NCBI GenBank assembly: GCA_026770705.1 | Contig: JANJGN010000049.1 | Span: 1,302,001-1,366,000 of the forward strand | Reading direction: 5' to 3' | DNA: 64,000 bases | Source of the DNA: Isurus oxyrinchus | Taxonomy: Eukaryota | Shown: positions 8,351 through 56,252 of the stretch, piece by piece | How the letters are laid out: each line of letters begins with the position of its first letter | Position numbering within the stretch: the first letter of the stretch is position 1 | The notes under the pieces: generated by a model | Told to the model about the DNA's origin: nothing | Seen by the model: only the letters and a program-made list of their open reading frames with translations | Database searches by the model: none | Translations under genes and position numbers: made by a program

Positions 8351-8776
8351 TTTGTTTGTATAATATAATGTCCAGAACTAAGAAAGGAAAATGTCGATGA
8401 AGGTTCCCCAGAATCATTGGGCACCTTAGGGCAGAGATTCAGTTTCAATATAGGAATGCAAATAATTCAGGTTACTTCAAGGGACGAGAAAGCATAAGTT
8501 TCATGCTAAAGCTGAGAAATATTGATGCTGGCAGTTTAATCGCTTTCTAATTGAACATAATTTAAGCAATCGAACCCCATTCGTTTGAAAGACTCGGTTA
8601 CAATTCGCATGCAGAGGAAGAAACAATCATCGGCATCTTAAATATACAACAGGTTATTCTCACTTTGGTTATTGTTCGAGAAAATTAAAAAGCAATTCTA
8701 AAATGTATAATTCCTGCTGTTTACAATGTCACAAATAGTTAGCCAGGAAATTAAAACTTCGTGCCGGTCAGATACA

Positions 8777-8782
8777 TTTATT
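8777..8782 (-). terminator. Polyadenylation signal of the VJ-C1 gene
   Basis: AATAAA about 80 nt downstream of the ancestral C1 stop codon. Confidence 0.6.
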
Positions 8783-8859
8783 AAATCTGCCGAGATTACC
8801 GCCACGTTTCGCTTTGAAATTAAACTCAGGAGTTATTGCCTTGAGCTAATAGCCGGTCT

Positions 8860-9184
8860 TTAGCGATTGCAGGTGTCCAGGCTGATGGATTTCTGAACGA
8901 AAGTGTCCTGAGACTTGTATCTGAACAGACACGAGTAGTGATCCTTCGATTTCCAAGAGCTGACAGGGACCCTCAGCTGATGCTGTAGCTGTTGTCAGCC
9001 TCAAGATTAGGTAGATTTGTGGACACTCCGCTCTGCGTCTCAATGCCCCGCACTTTCCACAGAATGTCCACGAAAGCTGGGTAGAAGCCCCGAGTCAGAC
9101 AGCTCAGGGTCACTGTTTCAGCTGAACTTAGTTCCTGGCGCGAAGGCGGAAACAATTCCAGTGATGGCACCTGTAGTTGACGAT
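8860..9184 (-). CDS. Ig C1-set constant exon, light-chain type, frameshifted near 8975
   Basis: Phase-1 acceptor TTGCAG. Reads DRQLQVPSLELFPPSRQELSSAETVTLSCLTRGFYPAFVDILWKV...DNSYSIS then TGA at 8975-8973. The shifted frame continues LRVPVSSWKSKDHYSCLFRYKSQDTFVQKSISLDTCNR*, ending in a light-chain-like terminal Cys with no TM segment. Confidence 0.9.
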
Positions 9185-12100
9185 CTGCAACAGATGGTAC
9201 ATAGATGACATGGACTGTCACTGTAAGAGGCATTATTATTGTAGCTTAACGGTATGGTTATCATAGAACCCTCGGAAAATACCGCACAGAATGAGGCGTC
9301 CATCAGTGCCTCTGCCGGCTTTTCAAATAATTATTCATCTTGTCTCAGTCATGTACCCTTTTCCCTTAGCCCCGTAATAGTGTCCACTCAAATATACATC
9401 CCATTCCCGTTTGAAAGTTATTATTGAATCTGTTTTCACCGTCCTCCCATCCGTGCCCTCCAGATCACAACAAACCGTTGCATAAAAAGAAAAAGAAATC
9501 CCGCATGGCCGCTCTGGTTCTTCTTCCATTCGCTTTATATCTGTATTCCGTGAATACCGACTTTCCTGTCGCTATTGAAGTCCTTAATGGTTTGAATACC
9601 TGCATTAAGTTACCCCATAAACGTCGCTGCTCTAAGGAAACAACCCCAGGATTTACAGTCTGTCCACAGAACTCCCGTCCTGCTTCTCTGGTGGGCTTAG
9701 TTATGGGCTTATGATCACACCATTACAATTTCAGGAATTGAATTCAATTGCGCTGGAGGCAAACAAGCTTCCGGATTGTTGTAATAAGCAAGTGGCTCAC
9801 AGGAAATGGACCAACCCCATTCCTACCCGCCGTGTCGACATGTGACTCAGTCCCACACTGCATAGGTAAATTTTGGTTCATTGAGGGCGAATACTAATAG
9901 GCCACCTTCGCTCTGTAGCCCACTATGTTCAAAACTAAATTATTTTAAAATGCTACGACGCCATTATTTACTATCACCGCGTAACATTTTCGCCAATATC
10001 TTTTAGTTTTCACAATAGTTTGATGGAAAATTCCTCGAATTGCTTGGTGTGAACAATTTGCTAAATAAAAGGGGAACTTTCCATTTTCTGTTATATATTG
10101 GGGAACTCCCAAACAGATATTCCAAATATCTGCCAGCAATACAAACAAGCAGAGTCATCGCCGCTGTCACATTTATTTGTTCTACAAAACGTATTCCACC
10201 TAATGTGCTTCTGATTCTGCTCCACTCCAGTTGAAAGCGCAGCCGTTCGGTGTGTTGTAGATCAGTGCACACTAAGCCTTGTGCATTTTTGTAAAAATGG
10301 ATTCGTGTAATATCCTCAGCTGCTATCTTTTATTCAGGAGGAACGCCTTTATTTTTTTGTAAACGTACCTACAGCCAGTGGCCAAAATGTGAATCATTAA
10401 AAGAAGCATTGCCTGTATTTATTTTCCCTGAAATTGATTACATTGTATTTCTCTATCGCGGAAAATTAGATCATTTCTAATCTGCAACTCCGACATTCAA
10501 ACCGACAAATACAGCACTTTATTGTTGGAAAGATCGAAACCTTTGCACTAACCACATTAAAATTATCATGCGCCAACTTTAAAAAACTAACCAGAAGTGA
10601 GATCTCCAGCGCAAGATCCAACTGATTGACCTACACTTCAGTATCAAAATGTCTTGCAATGATTTTGGCTATAAATTCGCCCCAGGCGGCGGAACAATAC
10701 AGACGGCATTGATTCTACCGGCCTTTCTACACAGCGCCTAATATTCTTGTCGATGCAGTTAGTGGAGCTGAGTATCGGGAGCTGTTTGAATGATGGCCGA
10801 CAATGACTATTTTCTTGCACTTATCAGTAGCATGAGGAACAACTGAAAGAAAAATAAAATTTCAGCAATATTATAAATGCTTTGAACTGTGGGGGAAGTA
10901 ATTGCACGGGTCACTTTTTGAATTAAAATAGGAAATGCACCCCAGAATATGTTCCCTGCTTTGCATTCAAAGACAAGTTGGGCATTCACTGGGCTTTGAA
11001 TTGCCATGGATCGAAGGAAAAGGCATCTATATCCCATCTATATCCCACCACCCTGCACTGAAATGAGAGCAATTCTTCCCAGTCGGAACAAATAACAATC
11101 GGTGGCAATTTGAAACCTTTTTTTTCTTTTCGGAATCATTGTCCTTTTCTGAAATTAATTCTATTGATGATGATGTTCATACGTGGAACATTGAACATTC
11201 TTATTTGAACGTTTCTTTGCCTCGGAGCTCCGCTCTAAACTAATGGTTTATGGTTTAAAATAAAATAATACATGGCAGCTCCAAACTAAATACCTTTTTT
11301 TCTCAATATTGTACTGTAGGAAATATAAACCCACAACTTTCTGACTCAAACGCCAGAGTGCTACCACTAAACCATGGCTGACACAACAGAAATGATACCA
11401 AGAGGAAGTGTAACGGCCCTCTGTGTAAACATTAACATCATACTCAGTGTTCCATTCCAATAATATCACAATTAAATTATTTCATTCTTACACTGTCCCA
11501 CTGTCTTAACCTGCAACTTAAAGTGCAATAACGTCTAGGTTTTTTCTTTAATAAATACTGATTGACACGAATGAGCTTTTCCAATGATCATGGCAGAGGT
11601 CTGCAGTTTCATTTAATATTTGCCACGAAGGTCAATGTTCTCGATGAGCTTATACCAGAAAAATGGCGCCGAAATACAAGTTCAGAACAGAAGTAAAAAA
11701 TGAAATTTTAAATCCTATAACTTACTGACAACTAATGTTTTTTTTAATTATGCTTCATGCTTAACATGTCTGGATATTTAGACATTGAATTATACGGTTT
11801 GCCAATAAATTAAAGATCGGGTGATTTAATATTTGGTAGCTGTACCTGTTCAGATTTAAAGATTCTATTGTTCTGATCAATTTCGGTTTATTCTATGGTA
11901 TACGCTTTTAGTTATTCGAGCCAATGCATTAATATGGAAGTGACGGAAAATACATTCATTGAAGGAATTGTGATTGTTGGTTATGCACCGTTCAGCCATA
12001 AAACAATAACTGCCCCCTCACGCCGCTGGCACTACGCCCCAGAGCAATAATGCATATGGCTGTGTGAGCATAAATAAATGTAGAATTGAAGAGTGGTGGT

Positions 12101-12792
12101 AATAAGATAGATTGCTCAGGCGTTGAGGAAATAAATATCCTGTAACAGCAAGTGTCACTCAATGTTAAAATATGGTCCAGTTTTAACCAGTTTCACACGG
12201 CAATACCAACTAGCTCCCAGAAATAACAAAGATCGTCCAATAATAATGAATAGAGATTAGCACCATCAAACATCGCCTACTATTCACCACAATGCACGGT
12301 AAGGATAGGTATCCGCCTTGGCAGTGGCGCAAATCAGGCCGTATCGGTGAGGCCGCTGGATCAGTGCAGCCCCTGACATTTAGTTCCATTGGCTACAAGG
12401 CAACTGACTATTGGCCGCTGGGAAAAAGGCGCGGCCTATCTGATACAGTCCGTTTCCGCCACCACCTAAGGCGATTTTTACCCCATGGAATCCAAAGAAT
12501 TTCGGACACTCTGTTTCGTATCCCGCGAAGTTGAGAATGCTCCTGCATTCCTGACAATAATTTTTATTGGAGCAACATTAACGCTTAGCCTCGTCTCAGC
12601 TGAACGATCACCGAGTTCACCTTTTTTCAACTAATAAAATACCAACGGCCAGTATGTTAAGCACTAAAGGAAATGTCATTGCCGTCGTGTCGGGCTTGTG
12701 AAGTTTTTTCACAATGACTGTTGCAACATTGTGTAATATTTTGCAATCTAAAATCTTCCCTCAACACAAGCACGGTCTTAATATTTACTTAC

Positions 12793-13150
12793 CCACTACG
12801 TGTAAATCTGTACCTTTGCCAAAATACTGTCCAGAATCAAAAAACGAGCAGTAGTAGACAGCCGAGTCCTTCAGCTCCACGTGATTGACGGTGAGGGAGA
12901 AACTGTTCTTTGCGTCGTCTCTAGAATGGGCGAAGCGGTCGGTGAACCCTGAGCCTCGGAGCAGGGCGCCTCCATCATTGGTGCTTCTATGGGTCAGGAT
13001 CCATACCGGTGTCTTCCCCGGCGTCTGTCGGAACCAACGGAGCCATCTATTCCCCATATCTCTGTTCTTTACTGAGCAGCTTAAGGTGACGGACCCTCCT
13101 GGGACGGCAGAGGCAGTTTCGGCTTGGAGCAGTTCGGGAAGTGTAAGAAT
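12793..13150 (-). CDS. Germline-joined VJ exon (Ig V-set domain with FGxG J motif)
   Basis: ILTLPELLQAETASAVPGGSVTLSCSVKNRDMGNRWLRWFRQTPGKTPVWILTHRSTNDGGALLRGSGFTDRFAHSRDDAKNSFSLTVNHVELKDSAVYYCSFFDSGQYFGKGTDLHVV. Canonical Cys/Trp/Cys; acceptor TTACAG and donor GTAAGT. At 358 nt it is out of frame with the phase-1 leader. Confidence 0.92.
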
Positions 13151-13274
13151 CTGTAAGAATCAGAGTAAAAGTCATGAGTTCAGGCCTAAGGTTAAGTATA
13201 AAGGCAGCATGGAACGTTTTGGGTCAATACACTTTTAAATCTTTACAGCAAAATCAGCTCAACGTTATACTCAC

Positions 13275-13320
13275 TGGAGAAACACATTAGCAAGAGCAGC
13301 ATCATATAAACTGTGTCCAT
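13275..13320 (-). CDS. Leader (signal peptide) exon of the VJ-C1 gene
   Basis: ATG at 13320, 15 hydrophobic codons plus 1 nt (phase 1), then consensus donor GTGAGT. Confidence 0.85.
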
Positions 13321-13406
13321 GGTTACACTGAGGCACGCGCAGCGATTGACAAGCTGGGCCTGAGATTCTTACTGTCAGTGCAAAGGCAAAAGTTGGGTGC
13401 GACCCA

Positions 13407-13467
13407 TTTATATCCCAAACTAAGGATTCTTATTGGCTGTCGGCAACACGCCTTCAAAAATGCAATT
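13407..13467 (-). promoter_or_regulatory. Ig-light-chain-like promoter: octamer-like, CCAAT and TATA elements
   Basis: On the minus strand: AATTGCAT (7/8 match to ATTTGCAT) at 13467-13460, CCAAT at 13436-13432 and TATAAA at 13412-13407, about 90 nt upstream of the ATG. Confidence 0.6.
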
Positions 13468-36419: not shown

Positions 36420-36805
36420 GGTTATGTGTGTTTTTTGTGTGTGTTTCTGTGTGTGTGTGTGTGCATGTGTGTTTGTGTTTACTTGTACATATCTGTGCAT
36501 ATGTGTGTGTCTGTATACATCTTTGTTTCTGTGCGTGCGTGTCTATGCGTATGTGTCTGTTTGTGTACGCAAGCATAGGCTTCCGTGTGTGTGCATGTGT
36601 GTTTGTGTTTGTGTGTGTTTATCCATGTATGTGCTTCCGTGTTTGTGTGTGCGCACGCGGGCGCACGTGTGCTAGTGTGTACCTGCATATTTGTGAGCAT
36701 ACGTGCATGTCTGTGTTTGTGTGTATAAGTGCATCTGTGTTTGTGTGACTGTGTCTGTGCTTTCGTGTGTGCCTTTGTGTCTTTGTGTACATCTGTGTTT
36801 GTGTG
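36420..36805. repeat. Degenerate (TG)n low-complexity tract
   Basis: Interrupted GT dinucleotide repeats; these explain the Cys/Val-rich ORFs. Confidence 0.9.
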
Positions 36806-44279: not shown

Positions 44280-45287
44280 TTTTAGATTAATCACATCTTC
44301 ATCATCAAAAGGGGGCTCATAACCATAAGGAAAAGGCCAATCACTGGCAGGGTAAACTTTTTCTCCCCACCAGTGGGTTTCACTGGGGCCAGTGCGTATC
44401 AATTGAGGGACAAAGGGAGCTCCTCCTAATCCAGTGGTGACTCCAGTCATAGCTCCATTAATACACTGGATACAGCAAATCCTCATAGTAGCACATGCAC
44501 AACACCCTATAACACCTAATAAAACTAACCCAATTAAAACATACAGCAGCTAACTTTCCCAACTGGAGAACCACTCCGTTACTGTAGCCCGCCAGGAATC
44601 CTTGTTATAAACACTGCTCAACCTTTCCCCAACTTTCTTTATTTCTCACACTTTATCCATAACATGCTGTTCCAGGTCAGTAATATTCTCAGAAACATCA
44701 GGCACATAGGCGCAGCATTCTGAGCCTATTATGGCACAAGTGACACCTTTTTCAGCTAGGAGGAAATAAAGGGCCATTCTATTTTGTAGAGCTGTCAGGC
44801 ATAGGGCTAACATTTCAGCAGTGGTGGCTGAAATCTGTTTCTGGGTCTCAATAAAAGCATCAGCTGTCGAATTGGCAAATTTTTCAAGCGCAGCTGCCAG
44901 GTTGATAACCTCTCGGGAGTTACGCACAGTTCCATAAGAGGGGATAGCAATCATCCAGCATTGTTTAGATTTTGAGATGTCACGGCGATGGAGACGCAGA
45001 TGCTGGTGAATATCTGATGCTATAGGGCTGCCGGACGAGTGACTTGGACCCAATCTTCCTTCCCTTTAATCTTCAGGGCTGTACAAGTTGTTAGCAGCAC
45101 AAGATAGGGTCCTTTCCACTCTCTCATGCAATCCAGCTGTTGTTTTGCATTGAGGAAAATGAGTACAAATCCAACATTCAGTCCGATGAACTTGCAAGGC
45201 TACGGCCTGTATTCGTTGAACCACAGAATTGGTATTCCATGCCCCTGCAAGGACCACGCAGGACAGGATCCAAATCAGAGTCAGCAT
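44280..45287 (-). pseudogene. env: Gamma-type retroviral env with an internal SU deletion
   Basis: Signal peptide MLTLIWILSCVVLAGA, CWIC motif, furin-like RLHRR, immunosuppressive domain LQNRMALYFLLAEKGVTC, CX6CC (CAIIGSECC) and a hydrophobic TM segment near 44560-44490. Confidence 0.9.
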
Positions 45288-45333
45288 TCCGATGGCTCAG
45301 TTAAAGTTCTTGCACAAGCACTTCCGTCCGAGG

Positions 45334-45990
45334 TCAGCGTCTGTTTGACATGCGATGTGTGGATCCACAAGTGCATCCTTCAAGCTTCACGGCTGTATGG
45401 GTGGTGAGCTGGACTTGGAAAGGTTCTTCCCATCGAGGTTCCAAACAGTTCTTTCTACTGAAGGTCTTTACCAGGACTAGGTCCCCGGGCTGGTATTGAT
45501 GGCAGTCTTCAGTGGTGGGCTTTTTCTGAGCTTCTACTACCTGTATATGCGAGCTCTTGAGATAGTTAGTATGAGAGCGCATAGTCATGAGCGCCAAGGG
45601 TAGAGCTTCAGGCCCTTTCAAACTGGTTTCTTCACATAATTTAGCTAGTTTGTTTTTCAGAATACCATTTTGTCCTGCCATCGCTCCAGTAGACCGGGGG
45701 TGGTATGGGCAGGAAAGGTGATGGTTGCATTGTAAGACCTTCAACAGTTCCTTTATCACGTCAGCAGTAAAAGGAACAACAATTTTACAACAACAGCATC
45801 ATTGCGTTGGGTGGGATATGCCTCCACCCATCGCAAGAACAAACACACTAGAATTAAAACATAATTATATCCCGTACATTTAGGCATTTGTATAAAGTCC
45901 ATTTGTAGGTGTGCAAATGGGCCCCAAGGCTGGGGTCCCGTACCAGCAGTCACGGTGGGCGTCTTACCTGGGTTATGTCCTTGACATAGG
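45334..45990 (-). pseudogene. pol: Epsilon/gamma-like retroviral integrase fragment
   Basis: CQGHNPGK, PWGPFAHLQMDFIQMP, RWVEAYPT, CPYHPRSTG..QNGILKNKLAK, PGDLVLVKTF..LEPRWEEPFQV..TTHTAVK; internal deletions and frameshifts. Confidence 0.88.
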
Positions 45991-46326
45991 TATGACAGGT
46001 ATTACTAATATAATTACCTGGAAAAACTCAGCAGGTCTGGCAGCATCGGCGGAGAAGAAAAGAGTTGACGTTTCGAGTCCTCATGACCCCTCGACAGAAC
46101 TTGAGTTCGAGTCCAAGAAAGAGTTGAAATATAAGCTGGTTTAAGGTGTGTGTGTGGGGGGCAGAGAGAGAGAGAGAGAGAGGTGGAGTGGGGGTGTGGT
46201 TATATGGACAAACAAGCAGTGATAGAAGCAGATCATCAAAAGATGTCAACAACAATAGAACAAAAGAACACATAGGTGTTAAAGTTAAAGTTGGTGATAT
46301 TATCTAAATGAATGTGCTAATTAAGA

Positions 46327-48828
46327 ATGGATTTCTCGGACTGCTGTTCCCGTCACATTCTGAAATCCACACTCAGTGCCATGTGCCGCCATATGAACAC
46401 ACTCGACCTCTCCCTCCAGCAGCACCGCCGTACCCTTTTTCAAAGCTGCGCGTGCCCCCAGTTTCATTTTATCCTTCGGCTCATCCAACGCCTCAACAAG
46501 AAACTTTTTCTCTTTCTCTCAAATACTAAGGAACGCAAGCTCCAACAACTCATCGACACCAACACCCATCTAGGACCCTCCACCCCGGCCTGTCCCTCCG
46601 TCCCCACCTCATCTTCCAATCCCAACCCCAGCTGTGTATTCACTATACCCCCTGACCTTCCCCTCTCCAATGCTGAACGTTCAGTGCTCAGCAAAGGACT
46701 TAGTTTCATACCCTTACGCCCTCAACTCAATGAATTTCGGGCTCGGCATGATACTGAACTCTTCTTCCGCCGTCTTCGTCTCCGGGCTCACTTCTTTGAT
46801 CAGGAGTCCTCTCCCAGTTCAACGGATCCTTTTACCCATCTCCAATATTCTCCCTCCACCTGGACCCCTCCCTCTGGATTCTTACCTTCTCTTGATCTTT
46901 TCATTGAGAACTGTCGGCGCGACATTAGTCGTCTCAATTTCTCTGCTCCTCTCACCCATTCTAACCTGTCTCTCTCTGAACTTACTGCACAACATTCTCT
47001 CAGGTCCAACCCTGACATTGTCATCAAACCCGCTGACAAGGGTGGTGCTATTGTTGTCTGGCGCACTGACCTCTACCTCGCGCAGGCTGAGCGTCAACTC
47101 GCAGACACTTCCTCCTACCTCTCCCTGGACCATGACCCCAACACTGAACATCAAGCCATTGTTTCCAGGACTGTCACTGACCTCATCTCCTCTGGGGATC
47201 TCCCTCCCACAGCTTCCAACCTGATAGTCGCCCAACCTCGGACGGCCCGCTTCTATATCCTACCCAAAATCCACAAACAGAACTGCCCCGGTAGACCGAT
47301 CGTCTCAGCTTGCTCCTGCCCCACAGAACTCATTTCTCGTTATCTTGACTCCCTTCTCTCTCCCCTTGTCCAGTCCCTTCCCACCTACATCCGTGATTCC
47401 TCTGACACCTTACGTCACATCAACAATTTCCAGTTCCCTGGCCCCAACCGCTTCCTCTTCACCATGGACGTCCAATCCCTCTACACCTCCAACCCCCACC
47501 AGGATGGTCTAAGGGCCCTTAGCTTCTTCCTCGAACAGAGGCCCGAACAATCCCCATCCACCACTACTCTCCTCCGTCTGGCTGAACTTGTTCTCACGCT
47601 GAACAATTTCTCCTTCAACTCCTCTCACTTCATCCAAATAAAAGGTGTGGCTATGGGTACCCGCATGGGCCCCAGCTATGCCAGTCTCTTTATGGGGTAT
47701 GTGGAACATTCCTTGTTCCAGTCCTACTCTGGCCCCCTTCCACAACTTTTTCTCCGGTACATCGATGATTACTTCGGTGCCGCTTCATGCTCTCGTCGGG
47801 ACTTGGAAAAATTTATTAATTTTGCTTCCAATCTCCACCCCTCCATCATTTTCACGTGGTCCATCTCTGACACTTCCCTTCCCTTCCTTGACCTCTCTGT
47901 CTCAATCTCTGGTGATAGACTGTCCACCAATATCCATTACAAACCCACCGACTCCCACAGCTATCTCGACTACAGCTCCTCACACCCCGCTTCCTGTAAG
48001 GACTCCATCCCATTCTCTCAGTTACTTCACCTCCGTCACATCTGTTCCGATGATGCTACCTTCAAAAACAGTCCTTCTGACATGTCCTCCTTCTTCCTTA
48101 ACCGAGGTTTTCCACCCACGGTCGTTGACAGGGCCCTCAACCGTGTCCGGCCCATCTCCCGCGCATCCGCCCTCACGCCTTCTCCTCCCTCCCAGAAACA
48201 TGATAGGGTCCCCCTTGTCCTCACTTATCACCCCACCAGCCTCCGCATTCAAAGGATCATCCTCCGCCATTTCCACCAACTCCAGCATGATGCCACCACC
48301 AAACACATCTTCCCTTCACCCCCACTATCGGCATTCCGTAGGGATCGCTCCCTCCGGGACACCCTGGTCCACTCCACCATCACCCCCTACTCCTCAACCC
48401 CCTCCTATGGCACCACCCCATGCCCACGCAAAAGATGCAACACCTGCCCCTTCACTTCCTCTCTCCTCACCGTCCAAGGACCCAAACACTCCTTTCAAGT
48501 GAAGCAGCATTTCACTTGCATTTCCCCCAACTTAGTCTACTGCATTCGTTGCTCCCAATGTGGTCTCCTCTACATTGGAGAGACCAAATGTAAACTGGGC
48601 GACTGCTTTGCAGAACACCTGCAGTCTGTCCGCAAGAATGACCCAAATCTCCCTGTCGCTTGCCATTTTAACACTCCACCCTGCTCTCTTGCCCACATGT
48701 CTGTCCTTGGCTTGCTGCATTGTTCCAGTGAAGCCCAACGCAAACTGGAGGAACAACACCTCATCTTCCGACTAGGCACTTTACAGCCATCCGGACTTAA
48801 TATTGAATTCAACAACTTTGGGTCATGA
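46327..48828 (+). CDS. Penelope-like reverse transcriptase plus GIY-YIG endonuclease (833 aa, probably 5'-truncated)
   Basis: IKPADKGG, FYILPKIHK, GRPIVS, FTMDVQSLYT, GVAMGTRMGP, RYIDD, PFLDL; Cys-rich linker; NLVYCIRCSQCGLLYIGET; C-terminal LGTLQPSGLN. Confidence 0.93.
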   Translation: MDFSDCCSRHILKSTLSAMCRHMNTLDLSLQQHRRTLFQSCACPQFHFILRLIQRLNKKLFLFLSNTKERKLQQLIDTNTHLGPSTPACPSVPTSSSNPNPSCVFTIPPDLPLSNAERSVLSKGLSFIPLRPQLNEFRARHDTELFFRRLRLRAHFFDQESSPSSTDPFTHLQYSPSTWTPPSGFLPSLDLFIENCRRDISRLNFSAPLTHSNLSLSELTAQHSLRSNPDIVIKPADKGGAIVVWRTDLYLAQAERQLADTSSYLSLDHDPNTEHQAIVSRTVTDLISSGDLPPTASNLIVAQPRTARFYILPKIHKQNCPGRPIVSACSCPTELISRYLDSLLSPLVQSLPTYIRDSSDTLRHINNFQFPGPNRFLFTMDVQSLYTSNPHQDGLRALSFFLEQRPEQSPSTTTLLRLAELVLTLNNFSFNSSHFIQIKGVAMGTRMGPSYASLFMGYVEHSLFQSYSGPLPQLFLRYIDDYFGAASCSRRDLEKFINFASNLHPSIIFTWSISDTSLPFLDLSVSISGDRLSTNIHYKPTDSHSYLDYSSSHPASCKDSIPFSQLLHLRHICSDDATFKNSPSDMSSFFLNRGFPPTVVDRALNRVRPISRASALTPSPPSQKHDRVPLVLTYHPTSLRIQRIILRHFHQLQHDATTKHIFPSPPLSAFRRDRSLRDTLVHSTITPYSSTPSYGTTPCPRKRCNTCPFTSSLLTVQGPKHSFQVKQHFTCISPNLVYCIRCSQCGLLYIGETKCKLGDCFAEHLQSVRKNDPNLPVACHFNTPPCSLAHMSVLGLLHCSSEAQRKLEEQHLIFRLGTLQPSGLNIEFNNFGS

Positions 48829-55279: not shown

Positions 55280-56252
<973 letters not shown>

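Follow-up and report, generated by a model that had tools for sequence, protein, structure and literature searches.

A frameshifted VJ-C1 gene of Isurus oxyrinchus and its intact paralogue, a likely germline-joined light chain related to sigma-2

What kind of chain does the germline-joined VJ-C1 gene on contig JANJGN010000049.1 of the Isurus oxyrinchus assembly GCA_026770705.1 represent? The gene lies on the minus strand of the 64-kb stretch analyzed here (contig positions 1,302,001 to 1,366,000; hereafter the window, whose own numbering is used throughout), and it reads as a leader, a fused VJ exon, and a single C1 exon. The coding part of the leader exon (13275 to 13320) begins with an ATG at 13320 and ends at a phase-1 donor, GTGAGT, a junction that is also seen in the spliced contigs described below. 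The leader intron, 124 bp and phase 1, runs from the GT at 13274 to the AG at 13151. The VJ exon (12793 to 13150) matches the Pfam V-set domain (E = 3.4e-19). Its first complementarity determining region (CDR1) has the length found in sigma-2 light chains, its CDR2 is three residues longer than that of sigma-2, and its CDR3 comprises eight residues (SFFDSGQY) followed by FGKG. A J-C intron of 3608 bp (9185 to 12792, GTAAGT..AG) leads to the coding part of the C1 exon (8860 to 9184; Pfam C1-set, E = 8.7e-11), which in the intact frame ends in Cys-Asn-Arg-stop (TCNR-stop at 8860, a Cys-x-x-stop terminus) with no transmembrane (TM) segment. A search of the whole window found no recombination signal sequence (RSS) in or near the gene; with the thresholds applied, the one match in the 64 kb falls at 36753. 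The original prediction, made from the letters of the window, had described V and J in one exon without an RSS, a long CDR2 beside a short CDR3, and one C1 exon ending in Cys without a TM segment, and all of these features are confirmed.

The prediction of two frameshifts is likewise borne out by comparison with an intact paralogue, L051. In the first lesion (13144 to 13150), the initial bases of exon 2 have been replaced by a repeat of the acceptor sequence, with a net loss of 2 bp. The second (8973 to 8976) is a 7-bp deletion in C1 between 8976 and 8975, followed immediately by TGA. With canonical splicing, translation would end after 49 codons. If a cryptic AG were used instead (exon start 13122), V would stay in frame at the cost of strand A, and the stop at the C1 deletion would remain. 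Thus, the window copy cannot make a full chain, and on its sequence it is a pseudogene. Because the 7-bp deletion and the lesion in the promoter octamer are common to another copy, L054, they are not read errors; assembly error is ruled out as the source, since these two lesions are shared and the remaining one, a replacement, is templated. Both copies on this contig (C49) are damaged at the same acceptor site, the window copy at 13150 and L054 at the start of its exon 2, by different lesions.

Promoter, splice sites, and polyadenylation signal were all predicted to be retained. This is true of the TATA box (TATAAA, 13407 to 13412), the CCAAT box (13432 to 13436), the splice sites, and the proximal AATAAA (8777 to 8782), but not of the octamer or of the distal AATAAA. 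The octamer (13460 to 13467) reads AATTGCAT, a 1-bp deletion from ATTTGCAT, which is intact in 12 of the 15 genomic copies, broken in two, and unscored in one. The distal AATAAA is present in all five paralogues with a matching anchor (L051, L052, L054, L055, and L057) and is destroyed in the window copy at about 8499 to 8504. Spliced contigs of the intact copy read through the proximal signal and end approximately 15 nt past the distal one, provided that their overhang is colinear; the distal signal is likely the one used by transcripts. With a base lost from the octamer and the distal signal destroyed, the description of an intact regulatory scaffold was overstated.

How many such genes does the genome hold? 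A DNA search returned 15 matches among 15 candidates at 88–100% identity, the window copy included, and it was compared with all 14 others. An intact leader, VJ exon, C1 exon, and splice sites are found in one copy only, L051 (G000:C326; 245 aa), so that the proposed check for intact paralogues yields a single gene. An 11-bp C1 deletion is common to eight copies, two older copies on C26 carry V frameshifts, and the intron of L052 has diverged by approximately 9%; for three copies the C exon was not found within the fetched stretch, and some of the 15 may be assembly duplicates. Counts of synonymous and nonsynonymous changes among the young copies are too few for use. A high-copy repeat of approximately 250 bp (L051:5027-5272) is inserted in the J-C intron of the intact copy and is absent from the window copy. 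Most copies lie on contigs with IgM heavy-chain variable (VH) or IgNAR-like clusters (C49, C38, C42, C100, and C26). On C49 two copies, at 1.31 and 3.13 Mb, are interleaved with VH at 0.53, 0.68, 2.46, 2.63, and 4.29 Mb, which suggests that the copies hitch-hiked on segmental duplications. No VH on C326 is listed among the 40 candidates scored out of 71. A check for synteny with the MHC or T cell receptor (TCR) loci had also been proposed; PSMB5-like exons lie on C88, a contig without a family member, and linkage to PSMB5, TCR-alpha/delta, or the MHC was not shown.

Two contigs from one sample, X1 and X2, consist of exons only, with leader, VJ, and C1 joined at the genomic exon ends, and both carry the intact alleles at the two window lesion sites. 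These provide the transcripts that the original prediction had asked for, on the presumption that they are RNA, no RNA source being on record. A processed-pseudogene origin of the spliced form was ruled out, as every one of the 15 DNA matches contains an intron. All exon pieces of X1 are identical to L051. In X2 the VJ exon departs from L051 at five positions, four of which form two tandem pairs, and C departs at one; its combination of VJ changes is absent from all 15 genomic copies. Among the differences between L051 and four young copies, the tandem share is 1.5–6%. Tandem mutation is a mark of shark immunoglobulin hypermutation (PMC5931798), and the tandem substitutions in X2 suggest hypermutation. 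X3, a DNA-like run of a second organism, shows even coverage over the full length of the gene. X7 and X8 leave the exons uncovered, and X9 covers only a single 154-nt piece at the end of C and the 3′ untranslated region (UTR); none of these was used as evidence.

Among 1.84 billion representatives, searched twice by words and once with a profile, only two orthologues came up, both auto-named 'lambda-1-like': P0001 from the bamboo shark Chiloscyllium punctatum, intact and, at 245 aa, of the same length as L051, and P0003 from Mustelus asterias, a partial model. Identity to L051 is 73% in V and 72% in C for P0001 and 80% in C for P0003. The family is present in three shark orders, and in L051, P0001, and P0003 alike CDR3 has eight residues and the sequence of the C1 F/G strands is conserved. 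Between L051 and P0001, CDR1 and CDR2 are identical at 24 of 27 positions versus 47 of 71 in the frameworks (Fisher p = 0.025, a post hoc test on one pair). Canonical sigma-2 pairs, which are members of multigene sets, show the opposite (CDR1 and CDR2 9/24 versus frameworks 56/72, and 13/24 versus 62/72). The prediction that the receptor is invariant gains some support from CDR1 and CDR2, but CDR3 is identical at only 1 of 8 positions.

Where does the family fall among antigen-receptor genes? Its nearest V relatives are sigma-2 (44–46% identity), among them a horn shark entry, WKK30312.1, that carries the name Ig sigma-2, and its nearest C relatives are sigma-2 and lambda (40–45%). The sigma-2 and lambda labels in our trees are those of named proteins. 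By inspection, the genome's own lambda gene is almost the same as a Carcharodon protein, as would be expected of a mackerel shark. The labels kappa, sigma, TCR, UrIg-like, NKp30-like, and PRARP-like are our own, presumed from tree position and architecture; L079 (G000:C36, 677 kb) stands in for the named PRARP/VJC1 sequences. Turtle and caecilian rows were likened by eye to ropefish sigma-2 in a supplement of PMC5985310. The family (100/99-100) branches separately from canonical shark sigma-2, kappa, lambda, and sigma. In the V tree, made of 51 of 58 rows once 7 redundant ones had been dropped, it is supported at 100/100 within an 18-row sigma-2-like group (87/76). NKp30-like joined V domains (L078 on C2 and L083 on C507) also lie in that group, beside canonical shark sigma-2 (84/81). 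In the C tree (48 of 63 rows) the family (100/99) and canonical sigma-2 (100/99) are each recovered. The V+C tree (38 rows) gives a broad sigma-2 group including the family at 68/93 and places the family outside a kappa/lambda clade (96/96), and the VJC tree (29 rows, 9 long or redundant ones dropped) gives the broad sigma-2 group at 84/94; a quick search of VJC under a mixture model returned that group, family included, as a 13-row clade with an SH-aLRT support of 95. L079 is not sister to the family in the best trees. Sigma is a starred clade without the family, and while the family CDR2 fits the sigma length of 9–10, its CDR1 length and its C do not. By the approximately unbiased (AU) test, a kappa sister is rejected in the V+C set (p = 0.0008) and UrIg-like (0.021) and TCR-gamma (0.014) sisters in the 29-row VJC set; a position as sister to canonical sigma-2 is unrejected in either (p = 0.45 for V+C, 0.21 for VJC). 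Judged from these alignments, the family appears to lie outside canonical shark sigma-2 and loosely inside the broad sigma-2 group. The original prediction had looked to whether both domains nest firmly inside an ordinary light-chain isotype; the V and C trees fall halfway, with a separate branch near sigma-2 and no firm nesting.

The build of the gene is that of a light chain: a split leader, VJ, a single C1, and no TM segment. An octamer-TATA promoter is present in L051 and 11 other copies, with 145 bp from octamer to ATG versus 126 bp in a rearranging sigma-2 cluster. The intact chain retains the Gln and Pro of framework 2, the FGxG motif, the ABED face of the light-chain constant domain (CL), and the terminal Cys. 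Could it pair with a heavy chain? A model of its CL with the first heavy-chain constant domain (CH1) of the genome's own IgM scored 0.72 versus 0.03 for the best control, on a mark that 51 of 78 solved pairs and 2 of 108 mismatched ones attained, that is not calibrated on antibodies, and that may be passed by a textbook pair through likeness. At least 90% of contacts recur between runs, the partner has a predicted local distance difference test (pLDDT) score of at least 85, and the terminal Cys108 and CH1 Cys15 fall within the interface, whereas the divergent F/G stretch does not. An AlphaFold model of the chain (pLDDT 90.9, built on a light-chain alignment) and its Foldseek matches to antibody Fab chains (33–38% identity) show only the ordinary two-domain immunoglobulin fold, and in a PDB sequence search the matches were swamped by multi-domain constructs.

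We propose, as the probable account, that the window holds a duplicate damaged by frameshifts. The intact copy of this gene undergoes splicing, and its likely product is an invariant light chain related to sigma-2, one that would partner heavy chains with no RAG rearrangement. The family is likely a distinct sigma-2-related, germline-joined light-chain lineage rather than a PRARP-type receptor. V and J would have been joined once in the germ line, before the Isurus, Chiloscyllium, and Mustelus lines split. The intact gene needs no RAG step; its octamer-TATA promoter would drive expression in B cells, and the C-terminal Cys would bond to CH1. The conserved CDR1 and CDR2 would form a fixed binding surface, which hypermutation may adjust. 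The extra copies would have been carried along when segments of the IgM/IgNAR region were duplicated, and would have decayed later.

Several observations weigh against this proposal. The sigma-2 placement is not starred in any careful tree, the C tree alone unites the family with canonical sigma-2 at only 36/58, and the AU tests leave unrejected PRARP-like (0.15), UrIg-like (0.083), TCR (0.081), and sigma (0.053) sisters in the V+C set and sigma (0.20), kappa+lambda (0.075), and a position outside all sigma-2 (0.13) in the VJC set. The mixture-model VJC clade includes the PRARP-like gene, on a very long branch; together with the NKp30-like V in the sigma-2-like group, this means that non-light-chains can sit there. 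The family CDR2 is three residues longer than a sigma-2 CDR2, given as seven residues in all species in PMC5985310, and Tyr replaces the usual His at the C1 F-G turn. As the CDR2 length departs from that of sigma-2 and the trees are not firm, we do not file the family as a plain member of sigma-2. Furthermore, expression is represented by two contigs from one sample, with the tissue not given, and hypermutation by one contig at a depth of 6.5 that also carries a C change common to paralogues, so that an allele or mosaic is possible. Finally, the CDR comparison was post hoc on a single pair.

What else could the family be? The intact gene might be a surrogate-like invariant chain, comparable to VpreB/lambda5, against which developing B cells check newly made heavy chains, rather than a chain of serum antibody; the window copy is dead in this reading too. 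The single intact copy, the lack of rearrangement, the greater conservation of CDR1 and CDR2 than of the frameworks, and the CH1 interface kept in the predicted model fit this idea, and no surrogate chain is reported in fish (PMC5192425). However, the single-chain V-J-C build of the family is an ordinary one, and the tandem pairs of X2 hint at mutation driven by antigen in mature B cells; we regard a surrogate role as unlikely. We give similarly low weight to a primordial non-rearranging VJ-C1 receptor, a secreted relative of VJC1, PRARP, or UrIg that never had an RSS and forms homodimers. No RSS relic is present, the family has its own long branch, its IgH-linked region recalls that of UrIg2 (PMC12227049), and both the unrejected PRARP-like sister and the PRARP-like gene inside the mixture-model clade are in keeping with it. 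Yet the best matches are light chains, the octamer promoter and Cys-x-x end are those of light chains, J has FGxG, the UrIg-like sister is rejected in the VJC set, and one C1 without a TM segment differs from UrIg, UrIg2, and PRARP. The original prediction had offered either a divergent germline-joined light chain or a VC1/VJC1/PRARP receptor; the former is supported, but the latter is not favored, given the sigma-2 and lambda best hits and the light-chain type of octamer-TATA promoter. Nor do the divergent F/G strands, whose sequence does read as described, favor it, as had been suggested, for they are conserved in three orders, have the sigma-2 length, and lie outside the predicted CH1 interface. 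That the gene is an ordinary, recently joined canonical shark sigma-2 (NS5) and a routine pseudogene is very improbable: the sister position is unrejected and joined NS5 genes are known (PMC4279169, PMC5192425), but V and C are only 44–46% identical to the genome's own rearranging sigma-2 versus 72–80% to the orthologues from other orders, and canonical sigma-2 is a starred clade without the family.

What would a sigma-2-related invariant light chain mean? Reviews count four isotypes of shark light chains, and the family lineage fits none of them cleanly. In the family the usual antibody pattern is reversed, the binding loops being more conserved than the framework. With one working gene, questions about an invariant chain become testable, namely its heavy-chain partner, its ligand, and a neonatal or pre-B quality-control role. 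The family is relevant, too, to the question of whether joined VJ genes are relics or were produced by RAG acting in the germ line, a route by which joined shark light chains can form (PMC2193156). As a tentative speculation, galeomorph sharks may keep, beside sigma-2, an ancient invariant light chain with a single functional copy and with CDR1 and CDR2 fixed by selection, which would be either a fish surrogate or a natural-antibody chain hard-wired to a single conserved ligand.

The remainder of the window holds, at 46321-48828 on the plus strand, an open frame of 835 codons whose match to RVT_1 is weak (E = 3.9e-5, below the cut-off) and which is probably a young retroelement; at 44646-45798 on the minus strand, endogenous retrovirus remnants with an integrase C-terminal domain (E = 2.8e-11) and an env-like fragment below the cut-off; and at 55568-56005 on the plus strand, a fragment of a C2H2 zinc-finger array.

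How does the family compare with known systems? PRARP and VJC1 are membrane receptors with a TM segment and a signalling tail. The family shares their non-rearranging VJ and C1 but, in genome and contigs alike, stops after C1 without a TM segment. The genome has other non-rearranging VJ(-C1) genes, namely L079, which appears to be of the PRARP-like type, and L070 (C30, 1.74 Mb). UrIg and UrIg2 resemble the family in their single-exon VJ, split leader, and presence in sharks, and UrIg2 also in its IgH linkage; however, they form homodimers, UrIg has three C1 domains and is expressed in liver, and UrIg2 has nine C1 domains and a TM segment (PMC12227049). With one C1 and no TM segment the family is neither of the two, and its contigs run into the 3′ UTR after that first C1. 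The genome's UrIg-like genes form another clade than the family; they include two at 68.0 Mb of C8 (L082, L094, and L095), with a joined VJ carrying extra cysteines and then several C1 exons, and a further one on C21 (L085 and L089), and UrIg2-like C domains are repeated on C530 and C5136. From kappa the family differs in its long CDR2, the kappa CDR2 being short, and in the AU rejection noted above.

In the literature searched, outside which lie several key papers on PRARP, UrIg, and shark light chains, there is no description of the family lineage. Table S1 of PMC12227049 gives a lone 'IgL sigmaprime' near PSMB5 in great white (LOC121270612) and an 'IgLsigma' in catshark; either could be the family or the C783 gene. 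This C783 gene (L068, G000:C783:146.6-148.8 kb) is another sigma-2-like light-chain gene in which V and J are joined, and its V and C exons are open. It is the orthologue of Heptranchias P0150 (100/99-100) and is loosely sister to coelacanth P0283, with a shared CDR2 motif, HWA.G.IDR. Together with its relatives in the sharpnose sevengill shark and coelacanth, it forms a second branch, which suggests that sigma-2 may be a set of old invariant lineages.

The nearest counterparts are found within sigma-2 itself (also sigma-cart, NS5, or type I). In nurse shark a germline-joined NS5 chain is the partner of neonatal IgM1gj (PMC4279169, PMC5192425); like the family, it is a pre-joined sigma-2-type chain with a predetermined binding site, but it is described as one of four NS5 loci, and the likeness is drawn from its description. 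With sigma-2 in general the family shares a leader-VJ-C1 cluster gene with an octamer-TATA promoter, a CDR1 of the sigma-2 length (eight residues in PMC5985310), and a Cys-Trp spacing of 13, as in all five shark sigma-2 rows. Similarly, its C has TL[ST]CL, SSYLRVP, the Cys-x-x end, and F/G strands of the same length. In contrast, the family is a separate branch at approximately 45% identity, its CDR3 is fixed at eight residues, and its CDR1 and CDR2 are conserved between orders. Finally, joined sigma-2 genes flank IgH in gar and occur in coelacanth and turtle (PMC5985310), and the family shares with sigma-2 the joined state and the IgH-linked position.

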